From: Octopus vulgaris
Taxonomy: Eukaryota
Length of the DNA: 64,000 nucleotides
Reading direction: 5' to 3'
Assembly: GCA_951406725.2 (NCBI GenBank)
Contig: OX597818.1
Span: forward strand, 63,612,001-63,676,000
The notes under the pieces were generated by a model. It had not been told where the DNA came from, did no database searches, and saw nothing but the letters and a program-made list of their open reading frames with translations. This document shows, one piece after another, positions 5,600-27,862 of this stretch (the first letter of the stretch is position 1; every line of letters starts with the position of its first letter). A program made the translations under genes and the position numbers.

Positions 5600-6136
5600 T
5601 TCTATTTCTGCGTTTCTATATTTTGATTTATTATCGCACTTTGTTTGGGCTGATAGACTGAAAGAAATATCATTACTGGAAATTTATATAGCATTTGAGT
5701 ATATGATACGCTTGTTATTTTGTCAGCGGGTAATCCCCTAGCATCAATGCTGATGTTAGAAATAATGTGGAATTCTTATTGTTTTCAATTTCTATTTATA
5801 CATATGCTAGCGGTAAGGTACCGAGGCATATCCTTATAATGTTTGTAATTTGTCAGCGGAAAATTGGATACGAGTAGGATTAATAACGAGCAATACATTT
5901 ACTTAGTAAACATCACAATCTAAAATGCATTCTGTGTGTGTGTGGTGCGCATTGGGCTGAGGAAACAGAAAACATTTGATCGACAATATTAGTGGCTGGT
6001 TCATGTTACGACAACAAACACTCCACGAAACTTACATAATGTTAAATCTCTTTAGATATATGTTTTTCATATTTTGTGCATGCTGCCATTCTACAAAAGA
6101 ATTTGACATGAAAATTCTATAACAAATCACTCTTTT

Positions 6137-6360
6137 ACATTATTTACATTATTTACATTTGACGGATATTTGTCCTCAACTTGCTTGTTTTTAACAGAAC
6201 GTTTCGGCTGATATACCCTCCTGCCTTCATCATGATCAAGGCTGGAGGGTATATCAGCCCAAACGTTGTGTTAACAACAAACAAGTTGAGGACAAATATT
6301 CGTCAATTGTACATACTGTAAATATTGTACATAATTCCTCGTCTCTTAAATATAGAACTT
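6137..6360. repeat. spacerless palindrome of a hammerhead-bearing PLE-type tail (family H1)
   Basis: Arms mirror around 6232/6233 (TCA|TGA) out to about 6137/6328. Each arm carries TGATGA-AGGCTG...CAGCC-GAAACGTT, with point mutations. Confidence 0.85.
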
Positions 6361-6424
6361 TAAAATCATAGTTATATGTTCGTACTTGACGGAATTCGGA
6401 CAATTATGACATTGACATTCTTAC

Positions 6425-6563
6425 GTTATTTATATTATTTACATTATTTACATTTGACAGATATTTGTCCACATCTTGTTTGTTGTTAATATCCGTCAAA
6501 TATAAATTATGTAAATAACGAAAATAATATATATAATTCCTCATCCTTATATATAGAACTGTA
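6425..6563. repeat. second inverted pair of H1 tail fragments
   Basis: tttacatttgacagatatttgtcc...gttaa is joined to tatccgtcaaatataaa...tatagaactgta, the reverse complement of the same tail. Confidence 0.7.
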
Positions 6564-6957
6564 TTGACATTTTTAGTGTAACGTCTGCTAGGCGCCATCT
6601 TCTCTGAAAAAATCTCAGAGACTAAATGATATCTGTTTAAAATATATCATTCCCATCATCCAAAGACAGTAGATACTATGATATATTTTCACCAAACTAG
6701 TGAAACTAAAGCAAGCAACTTGCTACATTGGATTGATGCTTACCGTAAACAGTAGAAAGTGTTCTCTGTACAGTGAATATTTAACGAAAATAATTTTCAT
6801 CCTCAAAAAGATGGCGGATACCTTATATACAAAGTATAACAATTAACACTTATATCCTGTCTGTAGGTTGCATAGAATATTATTGAACTTAACGCAGGCC
6901 ACGCCATCTAGTATATGGATTTGAATTTTGCATCAGTACATTTTATCATATAGACTT

Positions 6958-7202
6958 TTATTCTTTTATTCGTTTCAGTCATTTGACTGCGGTCATGCTG
7001 GAGCACCGCCTTTTAGTCGAGTATATCGATCTCAGGATTTATTCTTTTTAAGCCTAGCATTTATTCTATCAGACGTTTTTATGCCAAACTGCTAAGATAC
7101 AGGGACGTAAACACACCACCATCAGATGTCAAGCGTTGTTGGTTGACAAACACAGATACACACACACACGCACGCACACACAGACACACAGACACACACA
7201 CA

Positions 7203-7245
<43 letters not shown>
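6958..7245 (-). mobile_element. SINE family A, 3' half, ending in (CA)n/(TA)n
   Basis: tttcagtcatttgactgcggtcatgctggagcaccgcc... matches the family A tail. Confidence 0.85.
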
Positions 7246-7255
<10 letters not shown>

Positions 7256-7259
<4 letters not shown>

Positions 7260-8113
7260 CAGAATTGAACAGCCGAAATTTGCTATGATGATTCGGTGTC
7301 TGACTGAAGATTGAAGGCTTCGAATGATTTGTCTGTGTTCCGTGTTCGTCCCTTCCTGTATTTCACGTTCATTATATATAAAAACATTCATTCTTATATT
7401 ATTGCGGCGTTACGTGCACCCCCCCCCCGTTTGTTTGTCCAATTTTAAACCCTGCACGACTTCTATACACACTGTCTTTTACTACCCGCCATTGCTTCTT
7501 CACCAAACTTTTTGGCGCCCTCCGATTCTTCCCCTCTCTTCCTCCCATCCTCCTCCCCTCTTCCTCCCATCCTCCTTAATCCCTTCTTTCTCCTTTTCTC
7601 TTGGTCACTGATTCTGTCCCCTGCCTTCCACCCTCTTTGATTCCCTCTCTCTCTGTCTCTCTTTCTCTCTCTCCTGCGACCTGCTGCTTCTTAAACCATT
7701 CTGTTGGCCTTCGTATCTCGACCAACATGTGTCCCCGCTACCGAAACGGTAATTATTTCTACGCCAGCTATGTTGTTGTTGTGTTTTTGTCTCATTTGGT
7801 CTAAAGTCGTATGACAACCACCGTTATATATATTTTGTTTATTCATTACTGTTTTCAATTTCGTTTTCGTCTCTTGTATTCACATCCGTCTTGTGCGTTC
7901 ACATTCCTGTCTTCTACCAAGAAATCTAATGCTTACAGCTTAGTTTTTTTTCTTGGGGCTGGCCGAGTTGGAGCAAATATCAGAATTGAACAGCCGAAAT
8001 TTGCTATGATGATTCGGTGTCTGACTGAAGATTGAAGGCTTCGAATGATTTGTCTGTGTTCCGTGTTCGTCCCTTCCTGTATTTCACGTTCATTATATAT
8101 AAAAACATTCATT

Positions 8114-8120
<7 letters not shown>
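7256..8120 (+). mobile_element. non-coding 721-bp unit plus identical 144-bp terminal redundancy (partial tandem), inserted in (TA)n; PLE-type non-autonomous element
   Basis: 7256-7399 is identical to 7977-8120 (offset 721). (TA)n flanks both ends; a related copy lies at 27091-27862 on minus. Strand inferred from the RNA structure. Confidence 0.8.
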
Positions 8121-8173
<53 letters not shown>

Positions 8174-8177
<4 letters not shown>

Positions 8178-8380
8178 ATCCAAACAAGAAAGCACAAAAA
8201 AATCACAACGCGAGGGTGTGGAACAAATATATCATTATTGGACGGTCAGGAAAAAAAGAAAGAAGGAGGGTTTAACATTTCGAGCGGAGCTCTTCGTCGG
8301 AAACATAGGAGAGGGAAAGATCCAGAGAAGGGAATACAGAGGAAAAAAACCGACAACGGTACACACGCGGTCACATACAT
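8174..8380 (-). mobile_element. PLE-type terminal fragment (family H2) with minimal hammerhead at 8270-8304
   Basis: Minus: GUUU-CCGACGA-A-GAGC-UCC-GCUC-GAAA-UG-UU-AAAC. Homologous to 27901-28100; abuts (TA)n. Confidence 0.75.
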
Positions 8381-8507
8381 ACATACGACGGGCTTCTTTC
8401 AGTTTCCGTCTATTAAATCTTTGGTCGGCCCGAAGCTATAGTAGAAGAATGCCACACTGTGGGACTGAACCCGGAACCACGTGGTTGGTAAGCAACCACT
8501 CCTGCCA
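8380..8507 (-). mobile_element. SINE family A 5' part, with deletions
   Basis: cgacgggcttctttcagtttccgtc...gggactgaacccggaaccac matches the family A head. Confidence 0.8.
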
Positions 8508-9963
8508 TTATTTTTTGAAGAAGAATAGAGGGGGATATAATTTAGTTTACAATAATAAACATTATATATTTAATATATGAGTATTATATGTTTAAATTTA
8601 TTTGTTTTGTAATTATCGTTTGAAATGTATTGAATTCTTCATTGAAAATAACGATATGCATGCAGGCCTATCGAAGAGAAGCTGGCGTTAACACAATTAC
8701 ATTTTATATAGAAAAAACATCCGATAGAATTTTTTGATGTTTTGTAATATATAAACTTTGAGAAACAAACTATAAGAAGATACATAGGCTGTGGTATTCC
8801 CGATCACAACTTCATAAAGCATAATTATTAGGACTTGTAATGTTGGGTATGGCTTCTATAAAGGGCTAATGGGAGGAAATCCTTTTAAATGTGGTGAAAT
8901 TTGTACCGAAATTGCTTTTTGAAGGAAATGATAAGCATTTGCCCACAGGATAAATTTTAACTATTGTCGAAATTTTAAAGCCAAATACTATATATTTTTT
9001 TAAGACGGAGACAATATATTTTAAAACATACCATCAGAACACAAGCTAAATAAGATATTAGAAAATGAATATTGGCTATTTTGTTACATCTTAAGAAATG
9101 TTATATATTGAAATATTAATTAGAAATATAGACGGTATTACTAACTTAGATATTCGATTAATTTTTTAATTAGAAACTGATATCAAAATAATTTAGCATT
9201 GTAATTCATATGCAAATTGAAAGTTATGGGGGTGGAGTTTAAACCATTTGTCATTTATACTGATTAATGGCAATATATGATATAAGCAAGTATTTATACA
9301 GTTTTGGCGAAACAATTTAATCATAAATTTATATTCAGTGGAGTTGACAACAAAATGACAGAGCATGGCGAACGACTGAATTTCATATCTAAACCAGTAC
9401 GTTATGTATATCACAATACAGTCAAAACAAATGTGAGTGGTTTAGTATGTCATTTATACAGAGTAGTTTCAGAAACCTTCAAAAAATGAAATATTAGTGG
9501 GTAGACTTAAAATAATTTTATCTTTGGAAAACGTTAAAATATTGATATATATGAATCCATAATATACATCAATATCAATAAAATGGCAATAGGTCAGTTA
9601 CAACTTAGTTAAAAATTGTAATAAATAATACTGTTAAAAGAACAGAAGAAAATGTTGATATTGTTAGCAAAATTTGTAGTTTAAAAACGCACAATTTTAC
9701 TAAACACTAAATATATAATGGATTAAAATAATACAATCAGTTATGAAGGATATTTTGGAAAAATAAAATACATTCATGACTAAAAGTTGTTTCTAGGGGA
9801 TGGTCGAGAGATGGGGTTAATATTAACGCATAAACTTTGAATTTACATTTACATAGAATATAGCAAAAGTTTGGAGAAATGTGTTATCCAATGGCTAATT
9901 CAGTTAATACAGTTCTATATTTAAGAGATGAGAAATTATGCATTATTTACATTATATATATAC

Positions 9964-26748: not shown

Positions 26749-26858
26749 AATCAGTACAGATAAAGGGTGAAATATAATTGATTTAATAAAATCAACAAAT
26801 TTCACCAAGTAATATTTTCGTATGGAAAAGGACCATATTCGGTAAAATTATATCTAAT

Positions 26859-27058
26859 TATAACAATGAGGGTCTTTGCAACAAGTTGCTAGACCACATA
26901 CCGAAAGTATTAGAAATAGCAGCCAGAGGACTATTATTTCTTTGTTGTCGATGGGGACATATTTTTTCTAGTAAAAGAAATAATAGTCCTCTGGCTGCTA
27001 TTTCTAATACTTTCGGTATGTGGTCTAGCAACTTGTTGCAAAGACCCTCATTGTTATA
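26859..27058. repeat. perfect 85-bp inverted repeat with 30-bp spacer, between (TA)n tracts
   Basis: 26859-26943 is the exact reverse complement of 26974-27058. Confidence 0.95.
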
Positions 27059-27059
27059 G

Positions 27060-27090
<31 letters not shown>

Positions 27091-27092
<2 letters not shown>

Positions 27093-27859
27093 TAAACAGT
27101 AAAAATAATTACAGACATGGACAAGAACATGAAACGCCACAGAGAAGACACAAGAACCACAGGACGGGACATTCGAAGCCCTCAATCATCAGTCAAGAAC
27201 CAGATCATCTTAGCAATTTCGGCTGATTAATCTTGAGATTGCTCCGATATGGGCAGCCCGCCAAGGGAAATCTAAGCCAAGCGCATTAGATCCCCTGGAA
27301 GAAAGCTTCGAATGTATACAACACGAGGACGGAAAACGAACGAAGTACACGAACAAAAATACAGAATACGTGACACCAATAAGAATACAAAAACGTAAAA
27401 ACAATAACGGTAAAAATAAAAAATAAACAACAAAACAAAACCAGGACGTAGGACAAGGGTCTTTCGACAGGACGAATTGAGTATGGGGCTGGCTTATGAA
27501 GTTGTGCCTAATGGCCGCAGGGAGACGAACAAATACGTGTTGCTTCGGCGGCTGCTGGAACGAAAAGAGCGCTCAACAGCGGCTAGCGGTCACGTGAGAA
27601 CAAAAGACAGGAGAAAGGGACAGATGAAAAGAGAGAGAAGGTGGACGAGGGAGGAGAAGAAAGAGACAGATCGAGGGGGCTGGAGGTGAGAGAGATAGAG
27701 AAACGTAGAAGGGGGGGAAGACGTTTGGAGAGGGAAAGAAAGGAAGGGGAATAAGGGAGGAGAGAGAGAGAGAGAAAGAGACAGATTAAGAGTCGTATCA
27801 ATGCTTGAGAAAAAATATACTTATCGTATAAGGACAATTGTGGATACGTAGCCGCCGAT

Positions 27860-27862
<3 letters not shown>
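27091..27862 (-). mobile_element. ~770-bp non-coding element, diverged relative of 7256-8120, in (TA)n
   Basis: Minus strand starts TCGGCGGCTACGT (cf. TGCGGCGTTACGT at 7403), has a pyrimidine-rich body and shares the block TCTAATGC...GGCTG...CAGCCGAAA...TGACTGAnGATTGARGGCTTCGAATG. Confidence 0.75.

Follow-up and report, generated by a model that had tools for sequence, protein, structure and literature searches.

The window, that is, the whole stretch of DNA analysed here (64,000 nucleotides), holds non-coding, tandem, (TA)n-targeting elements of 720-770 bp belonging to two families, A and B, and near their 3' ends lies a motif whose pairing and conserved residues point to a hammerhead ribozyme with a rearranged order of strands. 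Its parts, with the elements that carry them, are as follows.

7256..7399, + strand: 5'-truncated, pLTR-like partial copy of 144 bp, identical to 7977-8120 and directly preceding the next monomer
7400..8120, + strand: full family A monomer, 721 bp, non-coding, with a pyrimidine-rich body and a fixed 3' end abutting (TA)n
7902..8047, + strand: whole predicted ribozyme domain, copy 1
7902..7914, + strand: 5' strand of the outer helix P0, pairing with 8034-8047 (found in the MFE fold; helices 1-2 of the covariation test)
7917..7956, + strand: inserted hairpin Pa, directly 5' of G10.1 (inner arm is helix 3 of the covariation test)
7957..7961, + strand: 5' strand of stem II, with G10.1 at 7957, remote from A9 (helix 4)
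7963..7969, + strand: 5' strand of the stem I-II interaction helix, pairing with 8011-8017 (helix 5)
7972..7984, + strand: block S, comprising a stem III strand to U16.1 (7978), A17 (7979) and the stem I 5' strand (7980-7984)
7991..8005, + strand: block G, comprising the stem II 3' strand to C11.1 (7995), G12-A13-A14 (7996-7998), A15.1 (7999) and a stem III strand
8011..8031, + strand: 3' segment, comprising the 3' strand of the I-II helix (8011-8017), the stem I 3' strand (8020-8024) and CUGAnGA, C3 to A9 (8025-8031)
8034..8047, + strand: 3' strand of P0, two nucleotides past A9
27090..27860, - strand: full family B monomer, ~770 bp, flanked by (TA)n tracts
27170..27314, - strand: predicted ribozyme domain, copy 2, with C17 at 27237, predicted cut at 27237/27236 and core at 27192-27186

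Pairing and covariation give the 5' to 3' order as P0 strand, hairpin, stem II 5' strand, I-II strand, block S, short linker, block G, I-II partner, stem I strand, CUGAnGA and P0 partner. Stem II (7957-7961/7991-7995, 5 bp) is followed by GAAA at 7996-7999. Stem III, in which A15.1 (7999) pairs with U16.1 (7978), has 7 bp in copy 1 (7972-7978/7999-8005) and 6 bp in copy 2 (27243-27238/27217-27212), and stem I (7980-7984/8020-8024) shows a compensatory indel in copy 2 too. A fourth helix, the stem I-II helix, joins the flanks of stems II and I. The core is interrupted between A9 and G10.1, with the 5' strand of stem II placed upstream and CUGAnGA last, and the gap is bridged by the outer helix, which in copy 2 consists of 14 uninterrupted bp, and by the hairpin. 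MFE folding, which yields nested helices only, recovered the outer helix, hairpin and stem II of copy 1 unaided, with z-scores of -1.56 for copy 1 (weak), -3.65 for copy 2 and +0.95 (no signal) for an example of family N, described below.

Several of these parts had been described in a sequence-only reading of the two elements. Its stem 1, in which two A-U pairs become G-C and one becomes G.U between the copies, is hairpin Pa, found with arms at 7917-7924/7949-7956 in copy 1 and 27298-27291/27268-27261 in copy 2 and with a 4-bp inner cap (7926-7929/7940-7943). Its stem 2, GGCUG/CAGCC followed by GAA, is stem II; the pairing is the same in both window copies, and the invariance claimed for it gives way among aligned relatives, where 8 of 34 copies carry C-G for U-A. 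The loop pseudoknot with its compensatory indel (7 bp versus 6 bp) was recovered as stem III with the cleavage triplet, and the conserved 3' word UGACUGAnGAUUGARGGCUUCGAAUG, present in both copies, consists of the stem I 3' strand, CUGAnGA and one arm of the outer helix. Three helices (outer helix, stem I and stem I-II helix) had been overlooked. The remainder of the elements is indeed more diverged: global alignment of the two monomers gives 74% identity over the motif and 78% over the core, versus 56% upstream and 53% downstream. The statement that the fold does not fit the hammerhead is right for the canonical topologies, none of which applies because the strand order is non-circular and the CUGAnGA block is interrupted, and wrong for the catalytic core, which is that of a hammerhead.

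Every canonical hammerhead core position (CUGAnGA, GAAA, U-H site, G10.1-C11.1) is present in both window copies, stems I-III and the stem I-II helix all occur in non-circular order, and CUGAnGA, at 8025-8031 and 27192-27186, is preceded by stem I. GAAA is invariant in 34/34 aligned copies, the U16.1-A15.1 pair is kept in 33/34, and G-C at 10.1-11.1 in 33/34 and in 22/23 copies of family F. Cleavage triplets seen are AUA, AUC, GUC, GUU and GUA, all with H at 17, and a viroid hammerhead is active with either AUA or AUC (PMC1636495). The stem I-II helix, as in hammerheads, comprises 6-7 bp, 87-88% paired and with double changes. A search for stem II variants with a base other than C before C11.1 returned truncated or decayed copies only.

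The order of S, G and then CUGAnGA matches none of types I, II and III (CGS, GSC, SCG). Rfam gave no family at gathering score in the window; the sole kind of match at E<=5 within 5900-8600 was a weak, chance-level snoRNA hit of 17 bits. Type SGC would have the stem II strand directly after CUGAnGA, where it does not lie here, and type CSG an intact block C at the 5' side followed by S and G, where block C is represented by its stem II half alone. Because block C is split, the motif belongs to neither class, and it becomes type CSG only after a circular permutation inside the core. By its predicted strand order the motif is outside all six published hammerhead permutations, and we are confident that it represents a new architectural variant, well supported as a structure and probably active. 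Since some Naiad elements carry SECIS, such a reading of the 3' word was considered by eye; it was dropped because no ORF is present in the elements and because stem I strand, core and outer helix account for the word.

Evidence for the fold comes from a MAFFT alignment of 34 hand-picked, near-complete copies that includes old, decayed ones. Across 38 pairs in seven helices, 91.5% of cells are paired (87-95% in each helix), 13/38 pairs show double changes, and 0/500 shuffles reach this level, in a control that ignores the relatedness of the copies. The outer arms of the hairpin were left out of the pair count because the alignment is gapped there. Sliding the helix partners lowers pairing to 22-48%. 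Stem II, the helix that places G10.1 far from A9, is 95% paired (95.3%), with double changes in 4/5 pairs. A predicted swap of stem III from A-U to G-C on both sides has 183 matches in the genome versus 0 in the control, and in the swapped copies both strands of stems I and II are altered too. Two copies in the alignment came from a set of loci (L145, L146, L151, L154, L157, L164, L166-L173, L176, L177) that hold older, diverged subfamilies or decayed copies with the same core words.

The sequence-only reading had rested on two copies. A single pattern from GAAA to CUGAnGA has 3,060 matches across the genome (2.8 Gb) versus 0 in the reversed control, and the window itself contains a third, 5'-truncated copy at 7256-7399. 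A structural descriptor written without stem letters hits the window exactly twice (64 kb, both strands) and a reversed control of 1.92 Mb not at all; on 895 kb of loci it gives 57 distinct hits, 56 of which fall into three sequence groups that share the topology (families A-E, family F and family N), while one AT-rich hit lies outside them. Family F (1,204 matches; loci L055, L127, L366-L395, L464-L553) is tandem and (TA)n-associated and has different stem letters, with the outer helix and hairpin also present; 23 of its copies are 93.3% paired, with 10/34 pairs double-changed and 0/500 shuffles as high. Family N (406 matches; loci L216-L235, L396-L445) consists of old Naiad 3' ends matching published octopus Naiads. 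In 14/30 of its loci the motif lies 0.5-1.4 kb downstream of C-terminal remnants of a Naiad RT on the same strand, and locus L232 starts at the predicted cut. At one locus the remnants upstream are presumably those of DKA, YIDD and thumb. No outer helix is evident in family N, and since several published Naiads also have no obvious one, this bridge is not universal. Six pattern matches occurred in viral contigs, none of them with the stems by eye. The earlier suggestion of a selected RNA fold, possibly an undescribed ribozyme, is thus upheld by covariation and by reuse of the fold in other sequence families.

The elements themselves look like mobile DNA. At 30 loci, copies of family A are 96-100% identical, end at a common 3' end with varying 5' truncation points, adjoin (TA)n and form head-to-tail arrays with a unit of ~700-720 bp; the family is very young. 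Family B monomers behave in the same way (tandem, (TA)n-associated), and inverted 5'-truncated copies were also found. Insertion at (TA)n, partial tandem copies and inverted 5'-truncated copies are structural marks of Penelope-like elements (PMC8557442), and the window elements show all three, as Naiads do, although these insertion traits also occur in PLE clades beyond Naiad and the window elements have no ORF with an N-terminal GIY-YIG and a C-terminal RT. Contigs of 748 nt, about one monomer long, from runs X1 and X17 align to window 7780-8105. In the X1 contig the end runs on into the start, as expected of a circle and of a tandem DNA array alike, and the element is present, as contigs only, in runs coded as four organisms; that any of these contigs are RNA is a guess.

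Other structured repeats lie nearby. A near-perfect palindrome of 220 bp (26849-27068) adjoins copy 2. Another repeat, which flanks both studied elements across the (TA)n tract, carries minimal hammerhead cores resembling type I at 8300 (-) and 28048 (-); position 4 of these cores is C, and A9 is followed by one additional base. At 6136-6329 a palindromic repeat carries one decayed minimal hammerhead per strand (6232 +, 6233 -), again with one extra base after A9 and with the stem II letters of family A, which could reflect a link or convergence.

Published Naiads extend the comparison to other animals. The last 300-520 nt of 52 of 54 consensi, plus motif matches further in, were compared by eye in the supplementary material available for PMC8557442. 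Seven Naiads show the split order with clean helices (Naiad-3_Chem, Amil, Anas, Plae, EuTe, Obim and Ovul), EuTe with the outer helix and hairpin as well; in Aacu it is accompanied by substitutions, and Bfor is a probable further case in which stem I is short. Carriers of the split order, judged in this way, include corals, a hydrozoan, an acanthocephalan, a clam shrimp and octopuses, and their stem letters are unrelated. By eye, six nematode Naiads (1-3_Nbra, Hcon, Hpol, Asuum) have intact CSG hammerheads and two spider Naiads a tentative S-G-C order; no hammerhead was recognised in the 3' stretches of the remaining consensi. The paper flags 10 'HHR_core' and 8 'HHR_half_core' entries, the latter label being given to octopus and squid Naiads, and concludes that Naiads are without canonical hammerheads (PMC8557442); it does not assemble the split fold. 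The motif is strongly linked to Naiad retrotransposons and appears to be the ribozyme that they were thought to lack. Among the bivalve and hemichordate consensi, oyster and hemichordate ends appear to have a further conserved structured motif in common, while mussel and clam ends look twister-like, both judged by eye.

An autonomous partner was sought in the octopus genome in 20 upstream stretches of family N and in two protein searches, which gave broken remnants only; with regard to an intact Naiad ORF, the 109 hits of one search contained no open frame above 263 aa and the 33 hits of the other none above 206 aa. These broken hits agree with the view that cephalopod Naiads have long been inactive (PMC8557442). 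Stop-free fragments of a Penelope-like RT that does not look like Naiad lie beside motif copies at L082 and L088, and this PLE clade is a candidate mobiliser of the young families.

If the motif cuts RNA at the predicted site, truncated copies might be expected to start there. The 5' ends of copies were mapped after sampling through exact anchors downstream of the ribozyme, in listing order among the first 100 matches listed per search. For family C (95 instances of 1,505 matches, 19 of them censored because the element continues upstream), 33/75 at-risk copies among the matches listed end in the bin from -3 to +20 around the cut versus 36/430 in 13 other bins (p = 6e-13), with 4/81 in the bin just downstream and 4/40 in that just upstream. 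As this bin was chosen on family C, only families A and F are independent tests. Among the matches listed for family A (67 instances of 354, 22 censored), 9/56 end in the bin versus 22/580 elsewhere (p = 7e-4), with 1/47 just upstream and 5/61 in the downstream bin, the last difference not being significant (p = 0.26). Family F (90 instances of 722), which is GC-rich at the cut, gave 18/80 versus 19/390 (p = 3e-6) and 5/61 in the bin just upstream, again among the matches listed. The partial copy at 7256-7399 likewise starts at the predicted cut, within 3 nt of a TA microhomology. Such microhomology was considered as the cause of the peak and rejected: TA-like words at -77/-79 draw few ends (2/28 in their own bin, among the matches listed), and GC-rich family F has the same peak, although the linker of families A-C is AT-rich.

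We put the probability at roughly 80% that the motif, as predicted from its sequence, is a full hammerhead core in non-circular order, split at A9/G10.1, which likely self-cleaves at 7979/7980 and so processes the RNA of a non-autonomous, probably Naiad-derived Penelope-like element. By stacking, the outer helix and hairpin would hold A9 beside G10.1, at the only place in the core where a bulged insert is known to be accepted. An extra base, A10, lies between A9 and G10.1 in the CChMVd hammerhead (PMC3705267), and one is conserved between 9 and 10.1 in the minimal hammerheads of PLEs (PMC4209133). Inserts reported there by Eckert et al. 2023 reach at most 1-2 nt (PMC10085705), and in the literature examined no natural hammerhead with a backbone break or a multi-helix insert at A9/G10.1 was found documented. 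Self-cleavage of head-to-tail transcripts would release unit-length RNA, its ends clamped by several helices and joinable into circles. A Penelope-like RT/endonuclease acting in trans may then nick (TA)n and prime on the short UA tract where two units meet, ~140 nt past the cut, so that target-primed reverse transcription would run off at or just before the cut 5' end. The outcome would be solo copies of 140 nt, or a monomer with a 140-nt partial copy as in the window.

The peak of 5' ends bears directly on the first alternative, a non-catalytic or barely active fold of hammerhead ancestry kept for RT/endonuclease recognition or RNA protection, with ends piling up where RT stalls in the pseudoknot. 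Ends are spread from +0 to +20, inside the knotted region, rather than on one base, and with a spread of ~20 nt stalling may account for them; the core is discontinuous, and cleavage itself is a prediction. Set against this, the non-pairing catalytic residues (CUGAnGA, GAAA, a base other than G at 17) are kept while stem letters turn over in three genomic groups and several phyla, and among the matches listed the end rate falls just upstream of the cut (4/40, 1/47, 5/61) with no rise at the 3' side of those helices that RT would encounter first. We therefore consider a silent fold improbable, and the pure RT-recognition or stability element offered by the sequence-only reading is a minor rival to a ribozyme. 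Cutting might alternatively be confined to multimers, if the active ribozyme formed between tandem units, with CUGAnGA of unit n and blocks S and G of unit n+1 making a type-CSG hammerhead whose ~600-nt loop is closed by the outer helix at A9/G10.1. Units do lie head to tail, both assemblies are identical in a circular monomer, and dimer-only activity has been proposed for other PLE hammerheads (PMC4209133); yet a single unit contains all the strands in 146 nt, where they would pair locally as they are transcribed, and long autonomous Naiads have this order at just one 3' end, which makes assembly across units quite unlikely. An intact type-SGC hammerhead that takes its stem II from GGCU five bases after CUGAnGA, leaving the upstream strand and outer helix as an off-state switch, is very unlikely and was rejected on pairing and descriptor counts, for the 4-bp alternative pairing, although possible in families A-C, is formed in 76.5% of cells without covariation (458/500 shuffles as high) against 95.3% with double changes for the upstream strand, and a contiguous stem II (at least 4 bp, 0-2 nt after A9) occurs in only 2/57 distinct descriptor hits.

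The split hammerhead favoured here shares much with the permuted forms of Eckert et al., who define blocks C, G and S and assume that blocks cannot be interrupted (PMC10085705). Those authors list 583 SGC, 2 CSG and 1 GCS sequences, almost only from metatranscriptomes; SGC and CSG permutations cleave in vitro, and the rates of permuted hammerheads are 0.004-0.19 per min (PMC10085705). Like SGC and CSG, the octopus motif has a reversed cyclic order of blocks, a pseudoknotted core, a fourth helix joining stems I and II, and a short linker between stem I and stem II (6 nt in the window motif, 3-4 nt in family F). Unlike them, it has block C broken at A9/G10.1, with the outer helix and hairpin inserted, and exists in thousands of copies in an animal genome. 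With Naiads (Craig et al. 2021, PMC8557442) it shares (TA)n targets, pLTR and inverted 5'-truncated copies and, as judged by eye at the 3' ends of several Naiads, the split topology; unlike published octopus Naiads, the window elements are non-coding and only 720-770 bp long, so that the topology is common and the sequence is not. Non-LTR retrozymes (bioRxiv 10.64898/2026.07.22.740005) are also non-coding, head-to-tail units with a hammerhead each and are non-autonomous PLE derivatives. Their hammerheads and the minimal ones of PLEs are type I, with a weak palindromic stem III, and need dimers, whereas the window motif is not of type I: its stem III is complete, its strands are in non-circular order and its core is split. 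The split-core variant was not seen in the available parts of PMC3088659, PMC10162972 and PMC13725137, and no description of a split block C or of permuted hammerheads in Naiads was found in the largely open-access literature searched.

Taken further, the motif is likely to be a seventh natural hammerhead architecture, with a core broken at A9/G10.1 and rebuilt by a helical junction, that would serve as the standard 3' ribozyme of many Naiads from cnidarians to crustaceans and octopuses. Together with the CSG forms of nematodes, non-circular permutations would then be common among animal genomes, circular permutation within tandem repeats would convert one form into another, and the octopus elements would form a class of Naiad-derived retrozymes with thousands of copies. 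The scheme of six permutations assumes that CUGAnGA and the stem II strand are contiguous, an assumption that the motif breaks with the backing of covariation and independent families. If true, a hammerhead that accepts helices at A9/G10.1 would offer RNA engineers a new insertion point. Statistics of 5' ends would provide a genomic readout of the cut sites in such RNAs, and the descriptor can be applied to all animal genomes. Non-circular hammerheads, known almost only from metatranscriptomes and, for CSG, from two sequences, now appear abundant in animal genomes, and the idea of these ribozymes as dispensable passengers is weakened. The motif would also answer why Naiads, among the most abundant retrotransposons of invertebrates, seemed to be without the hammerhead of other Penelope-like elements.
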